This document shows, in pieces, positions 1 to 13,787 of a stretch of 17,004 bases of DNA. Made by a program: the position numbers and the translations under genes. Source of the DNA: an uncultured Bacilli bacterium (GTDB lineage Bacteria > Bacillota_I > Bacilli_A > RF39 > UBA660); NCBI GenBank assembly GCA_910578745.1, contig CAJTSN010000027.1, forward strand, positions 5,099 through 22,102. The letters run 5' to 3'. Positions within the stretch are counted from its first letter, which is position 1, and every line of letters starts with the position of its first letter. The notes under the pieces were generated by a model. The model was not told the DNA's origin. It did no database searches and saw nothing but the letters and a program-made list of their open reading frames with translations.

Positions 1-77
1 AAACAAGCTTGTTGCTTTTCTGTAAATAAATCTCCATAAATAGCAAAAAGGTCTCCTAAATAAATTTGTTTTTCCAT
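1..77 (-). CDS. ylxM: YlxM/UPF0122-like small HTH protein, N-terminal fragment that runs off the window edge
   Basis: The minus-strand ATG at 77 translates as MEKQIYLGDLFAIYGDLFTEKQQAC. The 'LF..Y..L.T.KQ' pattern and the position directly downstream of ftsY match the conserved ftsY-ylxM-ffh arrangement in Bacillota. Only 25 codons are visible. Confidence 0.55.
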   Translation of the reverse strand, partial: MEKQIYLGDLFAIYGDLFTEKQQAC

Positions 78-124
78 CAACAAATCACCTCAAAAAAATC
101 TTTTTCTGTATAGGATTCTTTTCT

Positions 125-1117
125 CTACTCTTCATCATCTTCACCTATATCACTAAATAATCCATAAATATATTTTTCAATATCAAAAGACTTCAAATCT
201 TCTTTTTTCTCTCCTAAACCTATATACTTAACAGGAATACCCACTTCTTCTTTAATTGCTAGTACAATTCCTCCCTTAGCTGTACCATCTAATTTTGTTA
301 AGACAATTCCTGTAATATCAGTGATTTCTTTAAATCCCTTGGCCTGACTAATTCCATTCTGTCCCGTAGTTGCATCTAATACCAAAAGTGTTTCGTGAGG
401 TGCTTTTTGAATATGCGTCTGAATCACTCGATTCATTTTCTCTAATTCATTCATCAAGTTGGTTTTATTTTGAAGACGACCTGCGGTATCAACTAAAACA
501 ACATCAAATTCTTCGTCCTTCGCTTTTTTCATAGCATCATAGATGACACTCGATGGGTCACTTTCTTCTTTCTTTACAATGCTTGCTCCTGTTCGTTCTG
601 CCCACTCTTCTAATTGTTCAATCGCACCCGCTCTAAACGTATCTCCTGCCACTAATAAAACTTTCTTCCCTTCCTGTACCAACTTATAAGCAATTTTCCC
701 AATCGTTGTCGTCTTTCCAACCCCATTCACACCGACAAATAGTAAAACGGTTGGACCTTCACTACTATAATGAATTTTATTTGTTAAAATCGAATCCCCT
801 ACATAAATAATAAACATTTCATCCACGATAATTTCTTTTAAATCGGCTGCATTTTCGATTTTTTCTTGTACAACTCTTTTTCGTAAGCGGTCAACAAATT
901 CCATAACTGTAGAAACACCAATATCAGCCGTAATCAAAATATCTTCTAATTCCTCAAAATATTCTTCATCAATCTTTTTATGACGAAGAGCTAAGGTGGT
1001 TAATTTCGATTTTAAATCATTCCTCGTTTTACGAAGACCTTCTGTATAGGTTTTTACTTCTTCTTTCTCATTTTCATTCTTTTTTAAAACTTTCTTTAAA
1101 CTATCAAATAATTTCAT
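125..1117 (-). CDS. ftsY: Signal recognition particle receptor FtsY
   Basis: The 330-aa ORF carries SRP-GTPase motifs GVNGVGKTTTIGK (G1), DTAGRL (G3) and TKLDGTAKGG (G4). It has the typical charged N-terminal region. Confidence 0.95.
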   Translation of the reverse strand: MKLFDSLKKVLKKNENEKEEVKTYTEGLRKTRNDLKSKLTTLALRHKKIDEEYFEELEDILITADIGVSTVMEFVDRLRKRVVQEKIENAADLKEIIVDEMFIIYVGDSILTNKIHYSSEGPTVLLFVGVNGVGKTTTIGKIAYKLVQEGKKVLLVAGDTFRAGAIEQLEEWAERTGASIVKKEESDPSSVIYDAMKKAKDEEFDVVLVDTAGRLQNKTNLMNELEKMNRVIQTHIQKAPHETLLVLDATTGQNGISQAKGFKEITDITGIVLTKLDGTAKGGIVLAIKEEVGIPVKYIGLGEKKEDLKSFDIEKYIYGLFSDIGEDDEE

Positions 1118-1175
1118 ATTCTCACTTTCCTTATTCTCATTTTACTATAAAACGAAAGAAAACACAAACCTAAAG

Positions 1176-1204
1176 TGGACAAAAGAAAAAAAATAGTCTA
1201 TAAT
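1176..1204 (+). promoter_or_regulatory. Sigma-A-type promoter for rnj
   Basis: TGGACA (1176-1181), an exact 17-nt spacer, then TATAAT (1199-1204). It lies about 40 nt upstream of the RBS-supported ATG at 1245. The ORF-track start at 1203 sits inside the -10 box. Confidence 0.5.
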
Positions 1205-1244
1205 GGACATGTTCATTTCATCTTATAAAAGAAAGGAGTTTAAA

Positions 1245-2942
1245 ATGAAATTTAAAGAAGAGGGCGATACAAAGATATTCGCACTTGGAGGTTTAGGTGA
1301 AGTCGGAAAAAATATGTATTGTGTAATGCATGGAAATGAGATTGTGATTACAGACGCAGGAATGCTTATGCCAGATAGTACATTAATGGGGGTCGATTAT
1401 GTCATTCCAGATTACACATTTCTTAAAAAAAATGAAGATAAAATTAAAGCTCTATTTATAACCCATGGGCATGAAGATCATATAGGAGGGATTCCTTTTT
1501 TACTACAAACAGTAAATATTCCTCTTATCTATGCACCAAATCAGGCGGTTGGATTAATCCGTAAAAAGTTAGAAGATAGAAACATACAATATAAAAATTT
1601 AATCGTTTATGATGAATTAACAAAGGTAAAGTTTAAAAATATAGAAGTTTCATTTTTTAGAACAACCCATTCAATTCCTGATTCACATGGAATTTGTATT
1701 ACAACTCCAAATGGAACCGTAGTCACAACAGGGGATTTTAAATTTGATTTGACACCAATTGGTCCTATGGCAAACTTACATAAAATGGCTTCCATTGGCA
1801 AACATGGGGTAACTTTATTATTAAGTGATTCTACGAATGCACTGAACGATGGCTTTTCACTCAGTGAATCAAGAGTTGACAGTGCTCTTTCTGACATTTT
1901 CGAAAAACAAACGGGTAGAATTATTATTGCTACATTCGCATCAAACATCTACCGTTTAAAACATATTGTGGATACATGTAAAAGAAATGGAAGAAAAATC
2001 GCTATATTTGGAAGAAGCATGCAGAATAATATTGAAATCTCAATTAATGGAGGATATATTAAAAACAAAGATATATTTGTAACCGCAGAAGAAGCGAACC
2101 ATTTACCTTTAGATAAGGTTTGTATTCTTTGTACAGGAAGTCAAGGAGAACCTTTAGCTGCTTTATCAAAAATAGCAGATGGGTCCCATAAACAAATTAA
2201 GCTGCAGTCAAATGATGTTGTTATTTTCTCCTCATCTGCCATTCCCGGAAATGCAGCTTCTATTGGAAAAATTATTAATAAATTATATTTAAAAGGAGTA
2301 GAAGTATACACCAACACTTCTTTAAATGATATCCATACGAGTGGACATGCCAATGAAGAAGAGTTAAAATTAATGATCCGACTTATAAAACCAAAATACT
2401 TTATGCCATTTCATGGCGAATATCGAATGTTAAAAAGACATGCGGATATTGCAGTTTTATGTGATATTCCAAAAGAAAATACTTTTGTAATGCAAAATGG
2501 AGAAGTTTTATCCATGAAAAAAGGAGTAATAAAAAGAGAAGGACTCATTCAAGCTGGAGACACCTATGTCGATGGAAACCGTATTGGTGATGTTTCTACT
2601 TCCATTATTCGAGATAGAAAAATTATGGCATCTGATGGAATTATTGTTATAATTGCTAGCATTGATGCTACGAAACCAGCTCTTTTAGGAAAAGTGAACA
2701 TCTCAACACGAGGATTTGTTTTAGTAAATGATAATCTTGAACTTTTAACAGAACTTGAAAATATCGCACGAAAAACAATCCTAGCAGGATTAACAAAACC
2801 TGTAAATTATTCCAATATTAAATCCGACTTAATTACAAATATTCAATCAAAAGCATTTACAAAAACAGGAAGAAGACCTATTATCTTACCTGTTATCATG
2901 GATATAAAACAAAAAAAAGGAAAGAAAAAAGATACAAATTAG
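1245..2942 (+). CDS. rnj: Ribonuclease J (metallo-beta-lactamase / beta-CASP RNase)
   Basis: It contains the HGHEDHIGG motif, the typical N-terminus KIFALGGLGEVGKNMY, and beta-CASP and C-terminal domains of the expected length. I chose the ATG at 1245 because AAAGGAG lies 7 nt upstream. The 1203 ATG lacks an RBS. Confidence 0.93.
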   Translation: MKFKEEGDTKIFALGGLGEVGKNMYCVMHGNEIVITDAGMLMPDSTLMGVDYVIPDYTFLKKNEDKIKALFITHGHEDHIGGIPFLLQTVNIPLIYAPNQAVGLIRKKLEDRNIQYKNLIVYDELTKVKFKNIEVSFFRTTHSIPDSHGICITTPNGTVVTTGDFKFDLTPIGPMANLHKMASIGKHGVTLLLSDSTNALNDGFSLSESRVDSALSDIFEKQTGRIIIATFASNIYRLKHIVDTCKRNGRKIAIFGRSMQNNIEISINGGYIKNKDIFVTAEEANHLPLDKVCILCTGSQGEPLAALSKIADGSHKQIKLQSNDVVIFSSSAIPGNAASIGKIINKLYLKGVEVYTNTSLNDIHTSGHANEEELKLMIRLIKPKYFMPFHGEYRMLKRHADIAVLCDIPKENTFVMQNGEVLSMKKGVIKREGLIQAGDTYVDGNRIGDVSTSIIRDRKIMASDGIIVIIASIDATKPALLGKVNISTRGFVLVNDNLELLTELENIARKTILAGLTKPVNYSNIKSDLITNIQSKAFTKTGRRPIILPVIMDIKQKKGKKKDTN

Positions 2943-2956
2943 TTGTACCTTTTTTT
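2931..2956. terminator. Possible bidirectional intrinsic terminator between convergent rnj and the histidine kinase gene
   Basis: The stem is GATACAA (2931-2937) paired with TTGTACC (2943-2949), 6 of 7 pairs, with loop ATTAG. An A-run lies on the left and a T-run (2950-2956) on the right. The hairpin overlaps both stop codons. Confidence 0.4.
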
Positions 2957-4214
2957 ATGTATAATTTAAATTTTCGATTCGTGGTAAGGTAATAATCACT
3001 TGTGTCCCCTTTTCTATTTCTGACTCATAACGAATGGTGCCACCATGTCCCCTTATAATTTCTTTTGACAAATAAACACCTAATCCTGTCCCCGCTTTTT
3101 TTGTTGTAAAAAAAGGCTCACTCATCTTTTTTAAGTTTTCACTCGTAATTCCTATTCCAGAATCTTTAATTCGAATTTGAATTGTATCTTTTTTCTCTTC
3201 TGTACAAATCGTTAAAATTTTCTTTTCTCTCTGTTCCATAGATTCAATACTATTTTTAATCAAATTAATGATCACTTGATTTAATCGATTATAATCGGCC
3301 TCCATAAATACCTCCTCATCTGAGATATGCAAATCGGTTTTAATTTGCTTTTCCTTTAGAAGAGGACTTACACTATCAATTACATTTTCCAATAAATAAT
3401 TAATATCTAGTGTCTCTTTTTCAATTTTTATTTTACTAATCGATAAAAAATCTTGCAATAAAGTAAGCACTTTTTCAATTTCACTTTTTAAGATAGGAAT
3501 ATATTTCTTACTATGTTCCTTATTATCCATATCAAACATATCTAAATACCCTTTGCATACCGCAATCGGATTTTTGATTTCATGTGTAATTTTAAATAGA
3601 GAAGCTCTTAATTTTTTTTCTTCATCAAGTAGAGAAATTGCATTCGAATACAAAATCATATCTTCTGATTTTTTCAATATAAAAATAGTGAAAGTAATTA
3701 AAAAGACAAAAATTAAAAAAACGAAAAAGATCTCAATAAATTGAATTCTATTATCATATCCTATAGGTACTTTAAATAAAAAGTAACTGTAAGCAAAAAC
3801 AAATTTAGCTAAAACAAAGACAAAAGCATCCTTTGTATAATCACGTTTTCGATAAGACAACACTTTATACAGTGCGTAGCATCCTACACTATCTAGTAAA
3901 AGTAAAGCGATTTGTTCCTCAAAAAAATGTTTCATAAAAAGAATTTGAAAAACAGTAATCATCAAAAAAGAAAGTTCTCTTTTCTTCACATAGGCCAAAA
4001 TAAGAGGAACATTTAATGAGAAATAAAGAAGATAAGAATATTTGAGATTATAAATTTTAGTCATGAGATAAATCATAGTGAAAAGAGCTAAATCAAAGGA
4101 AATGTTTCTTCTTTCTTTATCTATATTTTTCATATAAATTTGATAAATCATCCAAATGGATAAGGGGAAAAGAATAAAAATCGTTTCTAATAGAATATTG
4201 TCAAATAATGTCAT
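2955..4214 (-). CDS. Membrane sensor histidine kinase (multi-TM N-terminus, HisKA and HATPase_c), with no response regulator in the window
   Basis: The H-box is ITHEIKNPIAV, the N-box is VIINLIKNSIES, the G-boxes are DSGIGI and GTGLGVYL, and about six hydrophobic helices sit at the N-terminus. I set the start at the ATG at 4214 (AGGTGA 4 nt upstream) rather than the ORF-track start at 4253. Confidence 0.85.
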   Translation of the reverse strand: MTLFDNILLETIFILFPLSIWMIYQIYMKNIDKERRNISFDLALFTMIYLMTKIYNLKYSYLLYFSLNVPLILAYVKKRELSFLMITVFQILFMKHFFEEQIALLLLDSVGCYALYKVLSYRKRDYTKDAFVFVLAKFVFAYSYFLFKVPIGYDNRIQFIEIFFVFLIFVFLITFTIFILKKSEDMILYSNAISLLDEEKKLRASLFKITHEIKNPIAVCKGYLDMFDMDNKEHSKKYIPILKSEIEKVLTLLQDFLSISKIKIEKETLDINYLLENVIDSVSPLLKEKQIKTDLHISDEEVFMEADYNRLNQVIINLIKNSIESMEQREKKILTICTEEKKDTIQIRIKDSGIGITSENLKKMSEPFFTTKKAGTGLGVYLSKEIIRGHGGTIRYESEIEKGTQVIITLPRIENLNYT

Positions 4215-4292
4215 AAAATCACCTATTCCCATTATAGGCATATACAATGTCAAATTTTGTCGAATTTTGTTTAAAAGAAAAAAGTGATACTA

Positions 4293-4607
4293 TCACTTTA
4301 AATCATCAATATGTTTTTTTAATTGATAAGCTCCTTCTCCAAGAATAATTTTAAGTTGATTATCAATTTCAACAATACCTTGTGCTCCCAATTTTTGAAT
4401 GGCATCTTTATTCACAATCTCTACATTTTTAAGAGTAACAATAAATCGAGACTTATTGACTTCATAACGAATAATATTATCTTTTCCACCTAAATAAGTC
4501 ACTAGTTTATTTACTTCAAATTGAAAATCTTTCTTTTTTGATTTTATAATTGCAATTGCAACGATCAATAAAACAAAAGCAATGATTATATATTGTATAT
4601 ATTCCAT
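4293..4607 (-). CDS. Small membrane-anchored protein with a PTS EIIB (glucose-family)-like domain that lacks the phospho-cysteine
   Basis: There is one N-terminal TM helix (IIIAFVLLIVAIAII). LGGKDNIIRYEVNKSRFIVTLKNV...LGAQGIVE...LKIILG then parallels the EIIB pattern 'GGKENI..LDACITRLRV....LKKLGAAGVV...VQAIFG'. The active-site Cys position is Asn. Confidence 0.6.
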   Translation of the reverse strand: MEYIQYIIIAFVLLIVAIAIIKSKKKDFQFEVNKLVTYLGGKDNIIRYEVNKSRFIVTLKNVEIVNKDAIQKLGAQGIVEIDNQLKIILGEGAYQLKKHIDDLK

Positions 4608-4761
4608 AGAATCACCACTATTATTATACTATACTTTTTTTCTATTTAATAGTTTTTTTTCTAAATTTTTAGAGCTTGTCCTTTTTTCAGTTCCTTTTTA
4701 AATTTTCTATTCTTTTTGTTTTAAAAGAATTCTAATAAATATGCTCTATGAATAATAAATT

Positions 4762-4794
4762 TTTTCAAAAAAAGATTTCGATTTTAAGCGAAAC
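4762..4794 (-). terminator. Weak intrinsic terminator after the metallopeptidase-VWA gene
   Basis: The minus strand reads GTTTCG-CTTAAAAT-CGAAAT followed by CTTTTTTTG. The stem is short (5-6 bp) and AT-rich, with a U-tract immediately after the stop at 4798. Confidence 0.35.
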
Positions 4795-4797
4795 CTA

Positions 4798-6276
4798 TTA
4801 CCTTTTTCTTTGTCCTACCTCATACTGATGTAATCTTGATAGTGCACTTTCATTTATATATATTACCTTTCCACCCACTGGATTTATTTTACAATTACCA
4901 AATACAATCCAGATTGCATCTATTTGCGTATTTGGCATATCTGCCCATCCATCCGTAAAAATCACCTTATTTTCCACTCTCCTAGTAAAAGCACCTACAG
5001 CTGCATTAAAATCAGTGCCTCCACCGCCATAAAAGGTTAAATTATCAATATCGGATTCATCTTTTATTTCTGTAAACCCATAGAATTTTGTATCAAAACA
5101 TCCTACCTTTACTTTCGAATTTTGCAATATATTTTTACATTCCCTTAAGAAATTTCTAAGAAGTATTTCATCAATAGAACCACTTGTATCCAACACAATT
5201 TCTGTTTCAGGTTTTGGCATTTCTTCTAGATAGGGTGTTACTACACCATCCTCAATTCCAGCGTTTTCATATGACCAATCGATAGCATAATTTACGGCTT
5301 CTTTTAACAATATTCTCCAATCAATTAAGGGTTCAGATATTCCAATAGATGTTATATTTCTTATATTCTCATTTGCATCGTTGCTATGGCCATGTGACTG
5401 ACTTGCTAATGCATTTTTAAGTTCTTCTAGTTGCTTCTTACGTTCAACCTTATTTTGTCTAAAGGCCTCTTTCTCTCCCAATTGTACTATTTTTTGAATT
5501 TCATCATACCTTATGTTTTCTGACTCCAATTCTGGCTCTCTATCTACTTCCTTTTTTGTTTCCTGTGACGATTCTTGTTTTTCCTCTAACCTGTCGTTTG
5601 CACTTTTCTCTTTAGAAGGATTTTCCTCTTCTTTACTTTTTCTCTCGGTTGCTTTTTTCCACATAGAATGTGTATCGTGTCCAACATCATGATATTCATT
5701 CGTATCTTCCCTAACATCTGATTGTGTCATTTTTTCAGATGTCTGATTTGGTTCTTTTTGACCATCCTGCTTTTGTTGATTCTCATTATTTGAGGAACTT
5801 TGTTCGAATTGATTTTCTCCCTGTTGTGTCTTATTTTCTGCATCCACATTTTTTTGATTTTCGCTTGAACTATTCTTTTCTTGTTTCTTTTTCTCCTCTA
5901 ATAGTATCTGATATAATTCTTCTGCGTCATAGTCAATTGCTCCTTGAATATCAACTCCTCCTTTTGACAAAGGTAGGCCATCGTGTTTTAAAAAAGCATT
6001 GATAACGGCATCCGTTGCCATATTCCATAAATCTGGGTCTTTTCCAACACTTCTCCATATATGATTAAAAGCAATATGACAGATTTCATGGGCAAGTATA
6101 AATACCTGTTCCATAATAGGAATAGAGGAAAAAAAGGTAGGATTATAGTATACAACCTCTCCATCCGTTCCTGCTGTTTCTAAAGACATTTCACTTTTAA
6201 ATTTACAATGAGCAACTACACTCCCAAAAAAAGGATACTTTACTAACACTTTATTTATAACTGTCTCTATATTCAT
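4798..6276 (-). CDS. Metallopeptidase-like (HExxH, DUF2201_N-type) plus VWA-like (DUF2201-type) protein with a long disordered linker
   Basis: The N-terminus reads PFFGSVV...TAGTDGEVVYYNPTFF...LAHEICHIAFNH...WNMATDAVINAF. The C-terminal VWA has an intact MIDAS-type set: DTSGS, GGGGTDF and FTDGWAD. I set the start at the ATG at 6276 (AGGAAA 8 nt upstream). The ORF-track start at 6321 has no RBS and overlaps the upstream gene. Confidence 0.8.
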   Translation of the reverse strand: MNIETVINKVLVKYPFFGSVVAHCKFKSEMSLETAGTDGEVVYYNPTFFSSIPIMEQVFILAHEICHIAFNHIWRSVGKDPDLWNMATDAVINAFLKHDGLPLSKGGVDIQGAIDYDAEELYQILLEEKKKQEKNSSSENQKNVDAENKTQQGENQFEQSSSNNENQQKQDGQKEPNQTSEKMTQSDVREDTNEYHDVGHDTHSMWKKATERKSKEEENPSKEKSANDRLEEKQESSQETKKEVDREPELESENIRYDEIQKIVQLGEKEAFRQNKVERKKQLEELKNALASQSHGHSNDANENIRNITSIGISEPLIDWRILLKEAVNYAIDWSYENAGIEDGVVTPYLEEMPKPETEIVLDTSGSIDEILLRNFLRECKNILQNSKVKVGCFDTKFYGFTEIKDESDIDNLTFYGGGGTDFNAAVGAFTRRVENKVIFTDGWADMPNTQIDAIWIVFGNCKINPVGGKVIYINESALSRLHQYEVGQRKR

Positions 6277-6286
6277 AGTATATTTC

Positions 6287-6688
6287 CTAAATTTGAGCAC
6301 ATAAGGAATATACTTCCTCATTCATTTTATGCATTCTTAAATCAGAACAAGTGGCAACAACAAAACAATTTTTAGGTAAATCAAAAGTACTCACTTTTTT
6401 ATATTTTAATATTTCCACAAATTTTGTTTGTTCTTCTAAAGCAATTTCATTAATATTTTCAATCACTAAAATCACAGGACCTAATTTACTTTTCTCTAGT
6501 AATGTTTTATACCATTCTGGAGGACAAAATTCTATATTCTCATAGTGTCCATTTAATTGAAGTCTATCTATATCTGCTTTTATAATAACCGCATTATCAA
6601 AAACAGTAGCAGGGATGTTTTGAATTAATAAAGGAGAGATGCCAGATTGCATATAATTTTCTAATAAACTTAATCTATCTTTATTCAT
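6287..6688 (-). CDS. Degenerate AAA-like protein with no P-loop, a paralog of the core of the upstream ATPase
   Basis: The 133-aa ORF has GGAGG 9 nt upstream, and its ATG overlaps the upstream stop (ATGA). It aligns by eye with the AAA core of the 6685-8295 product. PPEWYKTLLEK matches PPTWYSKVKEK, VILVIENINEI matches IHIIFFDELTNA, LPKNCFVVATCS matches IPSNARIVAAGN, and LLIQNIPAT occupies the place of FLHGRSSEGKS. Confidence 0.6.
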   Translation of the reverse strand: MNKDRLSLLENYMQSGISPLLIQNIPATVFDNAVIIKADIDRLQLNGHYENIEFCPPEWYKTLLEKSKLGPVILVIENINEIALEEQTKFVEILKYKKVSTFDLPKNCFVVATCSDLRMHKMNEEVYSLCAQI

Positions 6689-8295
6689 CGTCTTATTCCT
6701 CCTTGGGTATTCATTTCAGACATTTGTATTTCGAGGAGTCGCTCTAATCTGGATTCATCGCCATGTACCCACATCGATTCAAAAGCCGCTCTTGGCTCTG
6801 CGCCCACTCGTTTCATAAAATCTCTTACTATTTCAAAATGTTCATCATCAACAGAAGATAAACCAACAGCGGTTGCAAATTTCTGTGATACATCCATTTC
6901 GAAGTCCCATTCTGAGTAATTATGATGAATTACATCTTCAATACTTATAACTTGAAGTTTTGTAAATGCAACAAAATCTCTTGTTAACTCCTCTCCTATT
7001 AATGCACGAAGCATTTCTGGTTTTTTCGTCTTATAAAGCACTTTGGAAGCCATCTCCCATTTTCTTGGATCTGCATTTGGCTTATCTCCTGTATAAGGGG
7101 TTCTTAGTACATCATAACCACTATAGGATTTATAAGCCACATAAGCATAAATTGCTGGATGAATAAGGTTCTCTTTTTTTTCCTCTTTATAATCCACCCT
7201 CTCATATTTGTCTCTTGGCGTAGATGCCCATTTTAACCAACTATCTACGGTTGTTTGAATGTATACGTGTGCGAATCGATTAAATAAAGGCTCTGCCATT
7301 TGATTAGCGGCTAACGAGTCATTCAAATCATTCCCAGCGGCCACAATTCTTGCATTCGAAGGAATCTTCCATTTTCCATCTACTTCTCCATCTAACACAA
7401 TATTAAACGCCATTCCCTGAATAGAAGGAAGTGCATTTGTAAGTTCATCAAAAAATATGATATGGATTTTATTTGGTTCTTTTTCACATTTTTCCTTTAC
7501 TTTGCTATACCATGTTGGTGGCACATCGATCATTTCCCCTGTTTGTGCATTATATACACTTTTTCCATTTAAACTATTCGGTGTTGCATTTCTCATATAT
7601 ATAATTTCACAGTCTGGATCAAATTGTTTTACTCTTGCTGACTTACCCTCACTTGATCTACCATGTAGAAACACCGAAATGTTACTTTCTATAGCCCCTT
7701 TAATAATCTCTTCTTCCGATACATTCCCAAAATCAAAATGATAGGGATTTTCTTTTCGTAGTTGTTTTCGTTCATCTGAAATTTCAACTTGCTTTGTGTC
7801 CTTTTGTACATAGACTGTATCAGCCATTATTTCCTTTGCAAAACAAGTATCCATAAATTGTTTAATATCTGTTTTATCAAAGTTTCCATCATAATTCCTT
7901 TGATTTTTAAATTGAACTCCTGAAAATATAATTTTTTTACAAAGTGCAATATTCGTTCTTTCATCTACTAACCAAATAATTGGTTCAACTTCTACCCAAC
8001 ATTCACTTCCAAATTGAACCGATCTTCCATTGGATAGAAACTGACCATCACAGTTTTCATCAACAATAAAACGAATGTATTTTTTTCCATTATATTCATA
8101 TTCTACATGCTTTCTAGCTTTAAATTTTATATCTGTATCTCGATAGCTGACACAATCGGTTGTATAACTTTTTCCTGTTGTTTTTAAATTACCTCTTTTA
8201 TAGAATTCCTCTAATATACGTGCGTCATTATCACTTACTATAGTCTGAGGATATTCTCCATAATTAACTTCCTTAATTCCATTAGCGACTCTCAC
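6685..8295 (-). CDS. MoxR/AAA_5-like ATPase body of the DGR target. As an isolated ORF it has only a GTG start and no convincing RBS.
   Basis: Walker A is GRSSEGKS (7639-7662) and Walker B is IIFFDE (7444-7461). The sensor-1-like segment is RIVAAGND, followed by EPLFNRFAHVYI. Upstream of the AAA core lies a beta-rich segment (YGEYPQ...WVEVEPIIWLVDE). The frame is open and continuous upstream through the VR to the TGA at 8395-8397. Confidence 0.8.
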   Translation of the reverse strand: MRVANGIKEVNYGEYPQTIVSDNDARILEEFYKRGNLKTTGKSYTTDCVSYRDTDIKFKARKHVEYEYNGKKYIRFIVDENCDGQFLSNGRSVQFGSECWVEVEPIIWLVDERTNIALCKKIIFSGVQFKNQRNYDGNFDKTDIKQFMDTCFAKEIMADTVYVQKDTKQVEISDERKQLRKENPYHFDFGNVSEEEIIKGAIESNISVFLHGRSSEGKSARVKQFDPDCEIIYMRNATPNSLNGKSVYNAQTGEMIDVPPTWYSKVKEKCEKEPNKIHIIFFDELTNALPSIQGMAFNIVLDGEVDGKWKIPSNARIVAAGNDLNDSLAANQMAEPLFNRFAHVYIQTTVDSWLKWASTPRDKYERVDYKEEKKENLIHPAIYAYVAYKSYSGYDVLRTPYTGDKPNADPRKWEMASKVLYKTKKPEMLRALIGEELTRDFVAFTKLQVISIEDVIHHNYSEWDFEMDVSQKFATAVGLSSVDDEHFEIVRDFMKRVGAEPRAAFESMWVHGDESRLERLLEIQMSEMNTQGGIRR

Positions 8296-8339
8296 TCCGT
8301 TCGAGGAGATAGATGAGATTAATAAAGAATAAGGTAAAG

Positions 8340-8413
8340 CGGGACGAGCCCCAACAGAACGTCCCGTAACATGGGAGCAGTCCCTATTCCCATTTCAGCC
8401 AACGGCGCGCGCG
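8340..8413 (-). repeat. DGR variable repeat (VR)
   Basis: It aligns base for base with 9922-9995 (offset +1582). There are 13 mismatches, at 8357, 8358, 8363, 8364, 8373, 8375, 8376, 8377, 8382, 8383, 8396, 8399 and 8400. Every one lies opposite a plus-strand T of the TR, which is a coding-strand A. No mismatch occurs at the other 51 positions. Confidence 0.92.
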
Positions 8414-8622
8414 TCATTATCACCATCAGATGACTTTGTCCACCAACAACCTGCTCTATCCTTTCCACTACATCCTTCATTTGTGTAAGAATTTGATGCT
8501 ACATAACCTCCTAATAAAATAGAAAAGTCTGTTATAGCACATGCTGTTCCATACTTTTTCATTATATCTAACGAATTGCTTCCAAATATCTGTTCCTCCG
8601 TTAGAAATGTAAAACTATTCAT
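8395..8622 (-). CDS. N-terminal fragment of the DGR target (variable ligand-binding-type domain), truncated by a stop generated inside the VR
   Basis: The 75-aa ORF has a good RBS. FLTEEQIFG...ACAITDFS...GCWWTKSS...ARAVG followed downstream in frame by VGARPAL resembles the '...WWLRS....A..V..G......GVRPAL' C-terminal half of lectin-like domains that are commonly DGR-diversified in Bacillota. This resemblance is from memory and has not been searched. Confidence 0.65.
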   Translation of the reverse strand: MNSFTFLTEEQIFGSNSLDIMKKYGTACAITDFSILLGGYVASNSYTNEGCSGKDRAGCWWTKSSDGDNDARAVG

Positions 8623-8674
8623 ATATATATCACCACTTTTATTTTAACATATTTTCCCATTATTTGACAATTTT

Positions 8675-9697
8675 TTATTTAAAAGGGAAAGTATCCATTT
8701 TTAGCCTTTCACTTTCTTGTGTATTCTTAATATGATTATAAAAAGCATTTTTTCGAATATATACATATTCATCATCAACGATTCCCTTATTATATAATTT
8801 GTTTACTGTTTTTAAATGTTTTCTCATTCGCTGTTTTGAAGTATACCTTAACTTCACAATGATTTTCCCTGTAGTTGTTAAAATATGACGATACCCTAAA
8901 AAATCGACTCCATTTTTAACCATTCCTATTTGTGTCTTATCATTTAATTCTAAATTCAATACATTTTTACATAATTTTTCGATTTCCTGTTTACATAAAG
9001 CTAAATATTTTTTATCTCTATGAGGTAATATCATATCATCCATATAACGTACATATCCACGAATTCTCAAACTTTCTTTTATAAAGTGATCCACTTTATT
9101 TAAATATAAAAGAGCAAACCACTGACTTGATTGATTTCCTAAAGGCAAACCCACACTTGCATGATCTGGTTGTTCCTGAATCAATTTCCTTATCATCCAC
9201 ATCTCATCCTCTGAAAAATGGATTTCTTCTAAAAGGTGAATCAATATATCATGATTTATACTGGGAAAATACTTACGTATATCACATTTTAAAAAATATA
9301 TATTATTATTATTTTCTCCTCTATATTCTTTTCTTAAAAAAGCATGCAATCTTTCTATAGCAAAATTTGTTCCCTTTCCTTTTCGACATGCACAATTGTC
9401 ATATACTAATCTTTTATCTATTTTAGGTTTTAAACAAGCATCACAAAAACATCGAATGACCACTCGATCTTTAAAGGGAAGCGCTTCTATTAATCGTTCT
9501 TTAGGTTCATAAACATAAAATTTTTTATATTTTCCTAATGTATACTTTTTTGTAACCAATTCTTTATGTAGAGTATTTAAATTAAGCGCTAAAGCGGTTT
9601 CGAATCGAATGACCTCTCCCTTATGTTGCTTAGACATCCTACAATTTTTATAAGCTTCATTCAAATTTTCAAAAGTAAAAATTTCATCCAAATGCAT
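8675..9697 (-). CDS. DGR-type reverse transcriptase
   Basis: RT motifs are present: EPKERLIEALPFKDRVV, FLKCDIRKYFPSI, the catalytic YVRYMDDMIL, and FLGYR. Motif 4 reads LPLGNQSSQWFA, the 'GxxxSQ' form typical of DGR RTs rather than the 'QGxxxSP' form of group II intron and retron RTs. The size is 340 aa and there is no X/En or extra domain. I set the start at the ATG at 9697 (GGAGG 5 nt upstream) rather than 9736. Confidence 0.9.
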   Translation of the reverse strand: MHLDEIFTFENLNEAYKNCRMSKQHKGEVIRFETALALNLNTLHKELVTKKYTLGKYKKFYVYEPKERLIEALPFKDRVVIRCFCDACLKPKIDKRLVYDNCACRKGKGTNFAIERLHAFLRKEYRGENNNNIYFLKCDIRKYFPSINHDILIHLLEEIHFSEDEMWMIRKLIQEQPDHASVGLPLGNQSSQWFALLYLNKVDHFIKESLRIRGYVRYMDDMILPHRDKKYLALCKQEIEKLCKNVLNLELNDKTQIGMVKNGVDFLGYRHILTTTGKIIVKLRYTSKQRMRKHLKTVNKLYNKGIVDDEYVYIRKNAFYNHIKNTQESERLKMDTFPFK

Positions 9698-9921
9698 ACT
9701 TTCCTCCAAAAAATAAACACCCCCTATAACGCACAAAGAGTCATCTTACTCATTGCTTGTGTGAGTGTTCCTATATTTTTCCATCGCATCTTTGAAAATA
9801 CATCTTTTAGCGATTAGAAAAGAAGAAAATTCCTTCACCTTACAATACGGATATATTTTTCTTAAAATATATTTCTCTGATTTGTTTTCTGAATTTTATA
9901 AAAATTCCTTCAAAAGTGAAT
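9698..9921 (-). ncRNA. TR-to-RT spacer, probably part of the non-coding DGR template RNA
   Basis: It has no credible ORF on the minus strand. It lies between the TR and the RT start, where DGR spacer RNA is located in characterised elements. Several AT-rich hairpins are visible, for example GAAUUUU-UAU-AAAAUUC and AUCGC...GCGAU. Confidence 0.45.
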
Positions 9922-9995
9922 CGGGACGAGCCCCAACATTACGTTTCGTAACATTGTTTCAGTTTCTATTCCCATTTTAGTTAACGGCGCGCGCG
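9922..9995 (-). repeat. DGR template repeat (TR)
   Basis: It is a non-coding copy of the VR with 23 coding-strand adenines. In the target frame it reads A R A V N * N G N R N * N N V T K R N V G A R P and is rich in AAC/AAT codons. It is bounded by CGCGCGCGCC at the 5' end and GGGGCTCGTCCC at the 3' end. Confidence 0.92.
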
Positions 9996-10071
9996 AAGAC
10001 GCAGAGGGCTCTAAGGCCAAAGCCAAAAAAATAAATTTTCTCCTTAATTAAAGGTTTTTCAACCTAAAATC

Positions 10072-10665
10072 CTAATTTCTTTTTCTCCATCTTTCATCAT
10101 CGCTTTTCTTCCAAGCAATAACTAAATTAATTGTTTCTGCTAATTGCATAGAGATTTGATTATATTGCTTCTTTAAAATACAACCTGAACTCTCAGCAAC
10201 CATTGCTATATATCCAAGCAATTTCAATTTCACAATCGCTTCTTTTTGATAATGTTCCCTTTTTACTTTGTTTGAAGCAGAGTCCATTCGAATAAAATTT
10301 GCTTCTAATAAACACTCTATAGTATCTAAACAGTAATTCTGCATCCGATTTACAAATACACCTCTAAATTTCTTTGGAGATTTTTCTGTAACTGTAATTA
10401 CATAAGCACACAACTTTTTTGCTACTGTAATAACAATTAAATCATTTGCATTAGAAGGAATTTTATCAATTATTTTTAACTCTTCCTCTTCTACTTTCAT
10501 TTGTTCTCTCATCTTTTTTTGATTAAACTTTTCATGCGTAGCAACAGCGATTCCTTTTTTTGTTGCAATAACATCTTCAATTTCATTGGCTGTTCTTTCT
10601 ACAATCTCTATTTTTTTAGGAATTTTTAAATTATTATCACGACTGACTTGCAACACATGTATCAC
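10072..10665 (-). CDS. avd: Avd-like accessory variability determinant (four-helix-bundle family). The start is uncertain.
   Basis: The C-terminal segment of about 130 aa (KKFRGVFVNRM...LLEANFIR...KREHYQKEAIVKLKLLGYIAMVAES..ILKKQYNQIS..LAETINLVIAWKKS) fits the Avd/four-helix-bundle pattern. The gene sits immediately upstream of the TR. The ORF-track start is a GTG without a well-spaced RBS. Internal ATGs (codons 52 and 56) would give a more typical size of about 140 aa. Confidence 0.75.
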   Translation of the reverse strand: MIHVLQVSRDNNLKIPKKIEIVERTANEIEDVIATKKGIAVATHEKFNQKKMREQMKVEEEELKIIDKIPSNANDLIVITVAKKLCAYVITVTEKSPKKFRGVFVNRMQNYCLDTIECLLEANFIRMDSASNKVKREHYQKEAIVKLKLLGYIAMVAESSGCILKKQYNQISMQLAETINLVIAWKKSDDERWRKRN

Positions 10666-12130: not shown

Positions 12131-12156
12131 ACAAAAAAAGAGAAACAATTCTCTTT
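12131..12156 (-). terminator. Intrinsic terminator after the pilin-like gene
   Basis: The minus strand reads AAGAGAA-TTGT-TTCTCTT (12155..12138), a perfect 7-bp stem, followed by TTTTTTG. Confidence 0.7.
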
Positions 12157-13787
12157 TATTTAATCGTTATAACAGGTCTAAAACCAATTTTCAAATTGGC
12201 AGAACCATTTGTTCTATCATATGCATATAGTCCACTCGTTGTATTTCCAGAATAGTTTCCACCACGAACCATATATTTATTTGTAGCATCTACCATATTA
12301 TGCTTATCTTCATACTTTCCAAATAATGCCCCACCAGCACAATTGGCTTCTGTATTTAAACACGCTTTATTCGGGTAATAATCGACATATTTATTATCTA
12401 TAGCCGTTCCCCCTAAATTCAAAGATGTTCCATTATAGGCCATAACAAATTCTTCGTATCCTCCCGACATATCATAAATACCTGTGATATTCCCAGAAGT
12501 AGTTCCACTCATAGAAGCTTGACTCGCATAATTATTCTTGCACTCCGTAGAAACACTTCCACCAGCATTTCCAGAAGTACAACCTGTTATTGTTCCTCTA
12601 TTATAGTAATTATTAAGCCATATTTCTTCCTTTTTTCCATAATTAGAATCGGTTAGGTAAGCAACAGCCCCCCACTCCACATTCTTCATAAGATGGGTAT
12701 CAACTTGTGCAGAATTTAACCCAAATGAATCTGTAGAAGTAGCCATATTTTGTGTAACTTTAAAAGCATTAGCAAGGGATATACCTGACCAAGAATTTCT
12801 ACCTGGAACGGTTACTAAATCAATATGTGTTTTATTACAACTTGCTATATCTGGCGTTTGAAAGCAACTTGTATTAATAGGAGCACTCGCCTCGAATTTC
12901 GCAACCCACATTCCTTCTAACTGCTTTCCACCAAATTGAAAAGCGGGATGAATTCGATAGCCACTCGTTGGTGAAGTCTGTGTTGTTTTAATAAAGCGAA
13001 TAGCAAAACCATTTCCTTCTTGCTTATACTCATATCGTGGAATCCATACATACATTCCTGTTACATCATCTAAACTAATTTTAGTTCCTGGAACAGCTCT
13101 TTGATAATAAGATCTTGCATGTTTTGCATTTCCATCTAGGCAAGTTACTCCCTGTCTAGACTCACAATCAGACTTATTCTTAGAAAATGTCATCGCATTT
13201 GCCCATTTCTTTTCTCCATAGTTATACCAAGCTGTCGTCTTATCGGCTATAACCCAGTAACCTTTATCTTCCCTATACACAACTGGCACTAATCCATCAA
13301 CTAAGGAAGGATAAATTCCATCTTGCAAAGTATTATCTTTATAAGATGGCTTTGGTTCTTTATTTACATCGGTTGCATTTGTACACTCAATATCTTCAGA
13401 CAAAACATATTCAAATTCATTAAACTCATTCGTCGTTGCATAAATAATTCGCTTTAAAAAATTTTTCTTTTCTTCCTCGGTTTTCCCATAATCAATATAA
13501 TCTTGTAATTTTTCTTCTTCTATCTTTCCAGCATCAATTAATTCTTTAATAGTAATACAATAACTTGCCCTCTCTTCAGGCCCTATATATAGTTTTTGAT
13601 AAGTATTCGTATCGCCACTAGTATAGCTATCAGCTGCATCATACAACATTTGCTTTGCTGTATCACTAATAGCCCCTCTTTTAGATGCTGTCAAATTTTG
13701 AATTTGTGGAAGAGCAACAATAATAACTAATCCCATGATTATGACTACTGCTAACATTTCTACTAAAGTAAATCCTCTTTTTCTCAT
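12156..13787 (-). CDS. Prepilin-type (type IV pilin/pseudopilin-like) protein with a large C-terminal FGE-sulfatase/C-type-lectin-like domain
   Basis: The N-terminus MRKRGFTLVEMLAVVIIMGLVII is a class III signal, with cleavage after G and Glu at +5. The C-terminal part has WVAKFEAS, VEWGAVAYL, GIYDMSGG and a terminal MVRGGNYSG...GFRPVI, resembling the 'RGG....GFR' end of FGE-like folds. Confidence 0.7.
   Translation of the reverse strand: MRKRGFTLVEMLAVVIIMGLVIIVALPQIQNLTASKRGAISDTAKQMLYDAADSYTSGDTNTYQKLYIGPEERASYCITIKELIDAGKIEEEKLQDYIDYGKTEEEKKNFLKRIIYATTNEFNEFEYVLSEDIECTNATDVNKEPKPSYKDNTLQDGIYPSLVDGLVPVVYREDKGYWVIADKTTAWYNYGEKKWANAMTFSKNKSDCESRQGVTCLDGNAKHARSYYQRAVPGTKISLDDVTGMYVWIPRYEYKQEGNGFAIRFIKTTQTSPTSGYRIHPAFQFGGKQLEGMWVAKFEASAPINTSCFQTPDIASCNKTHIDLVTVPGRNSWSGISLANAFKVTQNMATSTDSFGLNSAQVDTHLMKNVEWGAVAYLTDSNYGKKEEIWLNNYYNRGTITGCTSGNAGGSVSTECKNNYASQASMSGTTSGNITGIYDMSGGYEEFVMAYNGTSLNLGGTAIDNKYVDYYPNKACLNTEANCAGGALFGKYEDKHNMVDATNKYMVRGGNYSGNTTSGLYAYDRTNGSANLKIGFRPVITIK

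Follow-up and report, generated by a model that had tools for sequence, protein, structure and literature searches.

The locus described here raises the question of whether two near-identical repeats beside a reverse transcriptase (RT) gene form a working diversity-generating retroelement (DGR), and of what such an element does when the gene that it diversifies is interrupted. It lies on a 17,004-nt stretch of contig CAJTSN010000027.1 (positions 5,099 to 22,102; assembly GCA_910578745.1), referred to below as the window, from an uncultured low-GC gut bacterium (31% GC) labelled 'Bacilli'. The cassette is ordered Avd, template repeat (TR), RT and target, with every part on the minus strand. It is read here, with high confidence, as a chromosomal DGR whose RT and Avd would home to a variable repeat (VR) near the N-terminus of an AAA+ target, and whose stop-prone TR yields null alleles of that target.

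A repeat search combined with alignment identified the TR at 9922..9995, a non-coding sequence of 74 nt with 23 adenines, and the VR at 8340..8413, also of 74 nt and covering codons 71-95 of the target. Comparison of the two (9995..9922 with 8413..8340) was ungapped over 74 nt and gave 13 mismatches, consisting of 7 A>G, 4 A>C and 2 A>T changes from TR to VR, with 13 of the 23 adenines changed and none of the 51 other bases. The chance of 13 random mismatches all falling on the 23 adenines is P=1.1e-8 (hypergeometric). The initial annotation of this DNA had reported two 74-nt copies with 13 differences, each an A in the TR, and every one of its figures was reproduced exactly on realignment. 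The repeat search itself extended the pair to 83 nt at 81% identity; 74 nt is nevertheless the right boundary, because past the 3' end, where the TR reads GATTCACTTT and the VR GCTTTACCTT, the copies differ at non-A sites too. At this end of the repeat is the GC-rich block GGGGCTCGTCCCG (8340..8352), common to the TR (9934-9922), within which a small stem-loop can form, and directly after it is a TR/VR difference that is fixed in every species and every allele (GCT in the VR, GAT in the TR). The block and the fixed difference would together behave like the boundary between an initiation of mutagenic homing (IMH) element and its TR counterpart, IMH*.

Read in the target frame, the TR gives ARAVN*NGNRN*NNVTKRNVGARP, with seven AAY codons that place adenines at codon positions 1 and 2, together with a TAA (9979..9977) and a TGA (9961..9959). 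The VR gives ARAVG*NGNRDCSHVTGRSVGARP, the TAA of the TR having become TGA (8397..8395) and its TGA having become TGC. The earlier description of the A-rich copy as non-coding and full of AAC and AAT codons stands as far as it goes, the two stop codons having gone unmentioned.

Same-species contigs were gathered through three queries, namely the truncated 536-aa product of the target gene, the full-length product and a neighbouring 133-aa protein (p133). They provided 16 distinct VR alleles, a sample that is partly biased, as some contigs were found through the truncated product; an exact look-up of the RT protein returned 2 contigs only and was unusable as an unbiased strain sample. Over ~5,794 aligned bases outside the VR, these contigs showed 0-2 differences from the window (10 and 25 in two contigs), whereas inside the VR 11-17 of the 74 positions differed, corresponding to a divergence of 15-23% in the VR against about 0.02% in the 5.8 kb flank. 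Among the 16 alleles, substitutions were found at 192 of 368 adenine sites (52%) and at 4 of 816 non-adenine sites (0.5%), in addition to 5 deleted bases, the two substitution rates being ~100-fold apart. All 23 adenine positions varied in at least one allele, and the TR showed no change in any of the 12 same-species contigs that extend to it. Other species provided 15 further TR/VR pairs, with the TR ~1.6 kb upstream of the VR and with 0-1 non-A and 6-16 A mismatches. A metagenome scan with the exact 26-mer upstream of the VR returned 0 matches.

The presence of a real DGR with recent, ongoing adenine-directed hypermutation therefore holds at the level of the species. The initial annotation had argued for recent mutagenic retrohoming rather than an old duplication, which agrees with the near-identical flanks around VRs that differ between strains and with the concentration of mismatches at adenines in related genomes. 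Its claim of strict adenine specificity is true of the window, but rare non-A changes and deletions of 1-3 nt occur in the population.

The four non-A changes were located in L001 and L096 (TR position 17), L084 (position 4) and L088 (position 13), where L numbers denote loci of the comparison set. Two of them replace the T of the TAA codon by G (T>G), in each case in an intact allele. Deletions of 1 nt and 3 nt were present in the VR alleles of L086, L087 and L095, two of them causing frameshifts, and suggest indel errors of the RT.

The RT gene (8675..9697) is intact and encodes 340 aa with the motifs LGNQSSQ and YMDD (RVT_1 6e-17, Pfam). Its best match among solved structures was 8ub7_A (328 aa) at E=7e-38, as opposed to ~1e-8 for group II and retron-type RTs. 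The database name of 8ub7_A reads only 'Reverse transcriptase', and from its sequence we take it to be the bRT of Bordetella phage BPP-1; in the alignment LGNQSSQ lies opposite IGSLTSQ, and YMDD opposite YMDD. A match at 1e-100 to the phage RT family phrog_1423 was also obtained (PHROGs). Upstream of the TR is an Avd-like accessory gene (10072..10665), of 197 aa from a GTG start and called at 194 aa in sister contigs, in which the Avd domain occupies residues ~75-190 behind an N-terminal extension of ~75 aa. It matches phrog_3206, 'Avd protein of DGR', at E=3.5e-17 (PHROGs), and the same residues match NCBIfam DivGenRetAVD (1.8e-6) and Pfam bAvd (4e-5), both under the curated cut-offs; no sequence match was found for it in the PDB, nor any PADLOC defence family. 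The placement of the TR between an Avd-like gene and an RT with the GxxxSQ signature, as first proposed, is upheld by these matches and by the LGNQSSQ motif read directly, and on sequence scores the RT belongs with DGR RTs and not with those of group II introns or retrons.

The non-coding region from the Avd stop to the RT start was found to be more conserved than the proteins in 12 species, and its folding was examined on the alignment of these species using RNAalifold and counts of base pairs with compensatory changes. A 5' leader (9996..10071) is predicted to contain a GAAA-tetraloop hairpin (10065-10052) directly after the Avd stop. It also contributes one side (the 5' arm, 10045-10033) to a long-range helix of 13 bp, whose 3' arm (9832-9820) lies in the 224-nt spacer between TR and RT (9698..9921), closing the TR into a loop. 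The spacer is predicted to be structured, with hairpins at 9907-9891, 9872-9851, 9818-9780 and 9770-9715, and just 3' of the TR an IMH*-like element, TTCACTTT (9920-9913), would pair with 9841-9834. The proposed partners could pair in 98.8% of alignment cells, compared with 44-57% for slid partners, and 26 pairs had changed on both sides, compared with 1-8 for slid partners; none of 500 shuffles reached the observed values. No Rfam family was found anywhere in the window. A covarying structured RNA enclosing the TR is therefore a well-supported prediction.

The target gene (6685..8622) is a frame of 645 codons that opens with an ATG at 8622, 52 nt past the RT gene. In the window it is split into a 75-aa ORF (8622..8395) and a 536-aa ORF (8295..6685), which share one frame and together represent a 645-aa protein, because of the in-frame TGA inside the VR (8395..8397, target codon 76) that arose from the TAA of the TR by an A>G change. 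Under table 11, TGA ends 3 of the 15 ORFs of the window and is internal to none (4,946 codons), all 44 tryptophan codons are TGG, and coding density is 88%. TGA is thus a real stop in this organism, and the VR of the window is a DGR-generated null allele of the target gene. The initial annotation had called the DGR complete, which is correct for the cassette of Avd, TR, RT and VR with its target, although the target ORF is broken; it had missed both the stops in the TR and the one that divides the 645-aa frame.

Interruption is not peculiar to the window. Ten of the 16 VR alleles were interrupted, by a stop at variable codon 2 (TAA, TAG or TGA), by a TGA at codon 8 or by a 1-nt deletion; in the sample anchored on the neighbouring p133, 4 of the 8 places listed were interrupted, and the exact 536-aa truncated product was found in 55 collection blocks, compared with 107 for p133. 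Null alleles are consequently present in about half or more of the same-species assemblies. From the pooled outcome frequencies it was computed that an unselected homing product would be free of stops in 22-25% of cases, and by our own arithmetic ~12% would be stop-free under the 31% misincorporation rate of bRT (PMC12875486). Intact alleles, at ~50%, are above the 12-25% expected without selection. Selection for target function is suggested by this enrichment and by the occurrence of the T>G changes of the TAA codon in intact alleles.

A TR carrying TAA and TGA in the target frame means that a large share of retrohoming products must be nonsense, and such stops recur among species. TAA at variable codon 2 of the TR was identified in the window, L003, L009 and L017, and TAA or TGA at variable codon 8 in the window, L003, L010 and L014, with TAA also in L020. 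Stops were found in the VRs of the species representatives L014 and L020, and the alignment of L036 breaks inside the VR; among the 71 target copies in loci without an RT, none had a stop in the VR region. The avoidance of stops has been described as a design principle of DGRs, as AAY codons cannot mutate to stop codons and the bias of the RT is said to minimise premature termination (PMC12875486; bioRxiv 10.1101/2024.11.15.621889).

An assembly chimera of TR and VR is unlikely as the source of the stop in the window, the longest exact run shared by the two being 17 nt, which is shorter than usual assembler k-mers. The same VR allele was found in GCA_949435665.1 (L090), though this may derive from the same data. 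Rearrangements between the repeats were also encountered. In L081/L091 (same species, ERZ28571897 scaffold_143, ~3883), the upstream flank of the TR is followed by a mutagenised repeat and the downstream flank of the VR, a rearrangement that has eliminated the TR together with the RT and ~70 codons at the start of the target, and a TR-VR hybrid has arisen independently in another species (L015, ~5960-6080). Such hybrids may reflect either recombination in the shared 5' GC block or aberrant retrohoming. In L007 (~5098), an in-frame deletion has removed the whole VR and ~30 target codons, with Avd, TR and RT still present upstream.

The target consists of an N-terminal module that contains the VR (residues ~1-130), a beta-rich middle (~130-260) and a putative AAA+ ATPase (~305-617). 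More than 3,000 homologues were found, the best 120 of those listed being full-length and one being 99% identical. They are hypervariable exactly at codons 75-90, between the conserved flanks WWTKSSDGDNDAR and GARPALPYS, and the VR supplies 16 variable codons near the N-terminus. The ATPase region matches the phage ATPase family phrog_1297 at 6e-39 (PHROGs) and carries Walker A (GRSSEGKS, 321) and Walker B (IIFFDE, 388) motifs. The Pfam families AAA_5 and Sigma54_activat gave only weak, sub-threshold matches in the target family, and Foldseek with the full-length model returned MCM-type AAA+ proteins only at low template-modelling (TM) scores. Neither a signal peptide nor a transmembrane helix was identified in the target (maximum KD19 1.18).

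For the N-terminal module, a match at E<1 to DUF6273 (PF19789) was obtained for 3 of 28 family members. Protein P0096 scored 25.4 bits against a cut-off of 23.5, and a duplicated domain in P0002 also passed; in these homologues the match joins residues ~23-97 to profile positions 103-169/172, that is, to the C-terminal ~65 positions only. In gut phages, DUF6273 has been described as a DGR target of C-type-lectin-like type, and N-terminal VRs were termed rare there; an N-terminal VR was recorded in 3 of 372 DGRs by Wu et al. 2018 (PMC5758913). The target's N-terminal domain is not assigned to the C-type lectin (CLec) fold, because its model is confident and has no significant structural neighbour: the best Foldseek E-values for residues 1-262 were 0.13 in the PDB and 0.04 in BFVD, with no CLec protein among the matches, although such a search may miss a small divergent subdomain. 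A PDB search with the profile of the target family returned nothing meaningful, the target, p133 and DUF2201 proteins had no NCBIfam match, and tblastn with the N-terminal 262 aa found nothing in 50,697 phage genomes. The peptide DNDAR that precedes the VR (GDNDARAV, 8413-8430) recurs 57 codons downstream (SDNDARIL, 8230-8250), a repetition that an internal duplication within the N-terminal region may have left behind.

Two further genes accompany the target in what is taken to be one operon. The start of p133 (6287..6688, minus strand) overlaps the target stop (ATGA), and the protein aligns to target residues 368-453 (BLASTP, E=1e-4), without a Walker A motif and with EN in place of DE; this alignment marks it as a degenerate copy of one half of the predicted AAA+ core, from Walker B to sensor 1. 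Next is a DUF2201 protein (4798..6276, minus strand; 492 aa when the start of the sister contigs is taken; Pfam DUF2201_N 1.8e-31, DUF2201 5e-13). In it, an N-terminal metallopeptidase-like domain with HExxH (HEICH) is joined by a long low-complexity linker to a C-terminal VWA-like domain, which carries DTSGS. The HExxH of DUF2201_N is the only candidate effector in the module. The same gene (as 4798-6321) matches phrog_1314 at 2e-62, a family annotated 'HNH endonuclease'; given the HExxH and VWA features, this label looks like a misannotation. Directly after the DUF2201 gene, a consensus scan detected a terminator-like stem-loop with a T-run (4773..4796, minus strand), where the operon probably ends.

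At least 78 species-level gut Bacilli genomes carry the module. Of the 78 species loci, 70 have p133 as the gene directly after the target, 62 have DUF2201 and only 21 have an adjacent RT. Many loci without an RT have 2-4 tandem target paralogs ahead of a single p133 and DUF2201 pair, as in L052/L069 (one contig, CAKOQK010000005.1), L057, L066, L079 and L080, and this looks like an alternative means of diversifying the module. L066 holds several identical target copies, which may be an assembly artefact.

The cassette is surrounded by chromosomal housekeeping genes (FtsY, RNase J, histidine kinase, FtsW/RodA, YceD, PrsW), and family searches of the window proteins found no phage genes around it. 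In IMG/VR the target family is carried by one contig only, L099 (IMGVR_UViG_3300006217_003178, positions 1-7622), and a phage origin of the module is unsupported. L099 is 40 kb long and has, at one end, all of Avd, RT, target, p133 and DUF2201, the Avd match being in two pieces.

These elements may be combined into a mechanism along the following lines. The region from Avd to RT would be transcribed, and its ~370-nt non-coding RNA would fold so that the long-range helix indicated by covariation loops out the TR. A complex of RT and Avd would then copy the TR into cDNA and misincorporate opposite adenines, a step modelled on the BPP-1 paradigm and consistent with the adenine-specific outcome. 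The cDNA would replace the 74-nt VR between two GC-rich blocks, in keeping with the observation that adenine positions vary and flanks do not. As long as RT, Avd and TR remain intact, an interrupted frame could in principle be repaired by a further homing event. By analogy with DGR-linked MoxR/vWA and STAND systems, the product of the target gene, in which a DUF6273-like binding module would be joined to a MoxR/AAA_5-like AAA+ ATPase, may be an intracellular ligand sensor that is coupled to this ATPase and a VWA/peptidase partner, much as in conflict or immune systems.

Other explanations of the locus differ widely in plausibility. An ordinary diverged duplication next to an RT from an unrelated retron, group II intron or defence system has practically no likelihood left. 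The RT does give sub-threshold matches to group II, Drt3a and retron models and to many PADLOC DRT models, as any RT would, but its match to a DGR RT exceeds those to group II or retron-type RTs by 30 orders of magnitude, an Avd is present, the same architecture is found in 15+ species, and neither the confinement of mismatches to adenines nor the gap between A and non-A rates would follow from duplication; the mismatch pattern, the RT match and the strain comparison already refute it. Very improbable, too, is that TGA is read as sense, as under code 4 or 25 (Mycoplasmatota, Gracilibacteria), leaving the target intact. The low GC content, the labelling of related metagenome-assembled genomes (MAGs) as Tenericutes and the fit of a tryptophan at that codon with alleles that carry W there would favour this; it is rejected on the codon usage given above and on the other null alleles, in which frameshifts occur or the codon in question is TAA or TAG, and which no change of code would rescue. 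A better but still unlikely case can be made that the VR of the window is a recently frozen pseudogene in a strain in which the element no longer homes. The target is interrupted, decay products exist (the RT-less hybrids of L081/L091 and L015, the VR deletion of L007, the frameshifts of L086 and L087), and over half of candidate DGRs were discarded as inactivated by Wu et al. (PMC5758913). Yet the RT, Avd and TR of the window are intact and identical to those of strains with other VR alleles, its VR has no non-A difference from the TR, and the nearly substitution-free flanks imply that any inactivation would be very recent.

A different question is whether the DGR is a selected stochastic ON/OFF switch, the stops of the TR being kept since reversible silencing of a costly AAA+/VWA module pays. 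This can be entertained only tentatively. The recurrence of in-frame TR stops across species (the window, L003, L009, L010, L014, L017 and L020), the coexistence of ON and OFF alleles within a single species whose TR, RT and Avd are intact, and the VR stops in the representatives of other species (L014, L020) are all in line with a switch. On the other hand, G>A drift in a non-coding TR at 31% GC would give TGG>TGA>TAA without selection, the excess of intact alleles over expectation suggests selection against nulls, the two T>G changes at the TAA codon occur in intact alleles as if rescuing the frame, and irreversible decay also takes place through TR-VR deletions that remove the RT. That the stops are maintained, and that the DGR both diversifies and switches a sensor-AAA+/VWA-peptidase module serving as a candidate immune system, in a form of templated phase variation, is consequently a possibility to which rather little weight is given.

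Several points weigh against the preferred reading of a chromosomal DGR that homes to an AAA+ target and generates null alleles from a stop-prone TR. Activity in the window's own strain is inferred from differences between strains, and the frequency of null alleles derives from redundant public consensus assemblies in a small sample. A search of 8200-8340, downstream of the VR, found neither an inverted repeat nor a cruciform. The target of the window has no Pfam match; its putative AAA+ assignment is drawn from phrog_1297, Walker motifs and sub-threshold Pfam matches, with low AlphaFold confidence for that domain, and the AlphaFold model of residues 1-262 (predicted TM score 0.85) had no significant Foldseek neighbour in the PDB or BFVD. 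PADLOC assigned no defence family to the target, p133 or DUF2201 proteins.

The DGR itself is of a known kind; what is unusual is the stop-prone TR, the N-terminal VR on a predicted AAA+ fusion and the structured TR RNA. In common with the prototype, the DGR of BPP-1 (avd-TR-brt, target mtd), it has an Avd and a DGR-clade RT with [I/L]GxxxSQ and YMDD motifs, a TR that is non-coding, sits between avd and RT and lies within structured upstream and downstream RNA, and adenine-specific transfer with a 3' GC-rich block followed by a TR/VR mismatch. Unlike the phage-borne BPP-1 element, it is chromosomal, with its target downstream of the RT. The VR of BPP-1 is C-terminal, whereas that of the window is near the N-terminus, so that its IMH-like element is coding sequence (GARPALPYS). 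The hairpin or cruciform that follows the VR in BPP-1-like DGRs, which is not universal, has no counterpart here, and TAA and TGA in the target frame distinguish this TR from that of BPP-1. Furthermore, the target of BPP-1 is a tail-fibre tip, and that of the window is predicted to be an intracellular AAA+ protein.

DUF6273 targets of gut-phage DGRs ('tentaclins'; Faecalibacterium prophage) resemble the window family in that, in several of its homologues, the VR segment matches the C-terminal third of DUF6273. Those phage targets are receptor-binding or decoration proteins with Ig-like domains, whereas the target of the window appears to be cellular and fused to an AAA+ ATPase, and Foldseek did not retrieve for it the C-type-lectin-like fold that has been reported for DUF6273. 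For multicellular bacteria, NTPase 'antigen sensor' systems diversified by DGRs and MoxR-vWA ternary conflict systems have been described (Dore et al., bioRxiv 10.1101/2023.09.22.558884; Kaur et al. 2020 as cited by Dore et al.). In those systems the VR is in C-terminal CLec domains of vWA, NACHT or STAND proteins and the MoxR ATPase is a separate gene, unlike in the window, where the variable module is fused N-terminally to the predicted ATPase itself. The vWA partner of MoxR-vWA systems is matched in the window by the VWA-like domain of DUF2201 (5e-13, DTSGS), although the partner here combines HExxH and VWA, and no VMAP or effector-associated domain was found in Pfam, NCBIfam and PADLOC searches. 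The hosts also differ, being multicellular bacteria in the one case and small-genome gut Bacilli in the other. 'UVR4' DGR targets of the Candidate Phyla Radiation (Wu et al. 2018, PMC5758913) are similar to the target of the window, with its putative AAA_5-like ATPase, in their AAA_5/Midasin-type ATPase motif and unclassified VR type, and come from a different phylum. Phase-variable contingency loci (slipped-strand repeats, invertons) likewise owe ON/OFF alleles within a species to a hypermutable tract; at the present locus, by contrast, the mutator is templated reverse transcription, OFF alleles come from template-encoded stops, and ON alleles all differ.

Elsewhere in the window, a promoter scan gave no more sites than were obtained in shuffles. 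The region 12156-13787 (minus strand) encodes a 543-aa protein whose sole feature is an N-terminal prepilin-type methylation motif (N_methyl; weak ComGC/GspG-like matches), and which is unusually large for a pilin-like protein. Literature searches on DGR with RF39, on DUF2201 with ATPase and on 8UB7 returned nothing useful.

The locus shows that an active natural DGR keeps TAA and/or TGA in its template frame in several species, against the avoidance of truncation described for these elements. It provides a tractable natural case in which to ask whether nonsense output is put to use as an OFF switch or is a cost that is tolerated, and how strong selection on DGR targets is in the gut. The predicted covarying RNA around the TR offers a comparative data set for the architectural rules of DGR RNAs, and the genes downstream point to an uncharacterised three-gene module of gut Bacilli, diversified either by a DGR or by tandem paralogs. 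If the target is indeed an intracellular sensor, hypermutated sensors would extend from multicellular bacteria to tiny-genome gut commensals, and if the stops are maintained, retrohoming would be a form of templated phase variation, contrary to the view of DGRs as avoiding nonsense.

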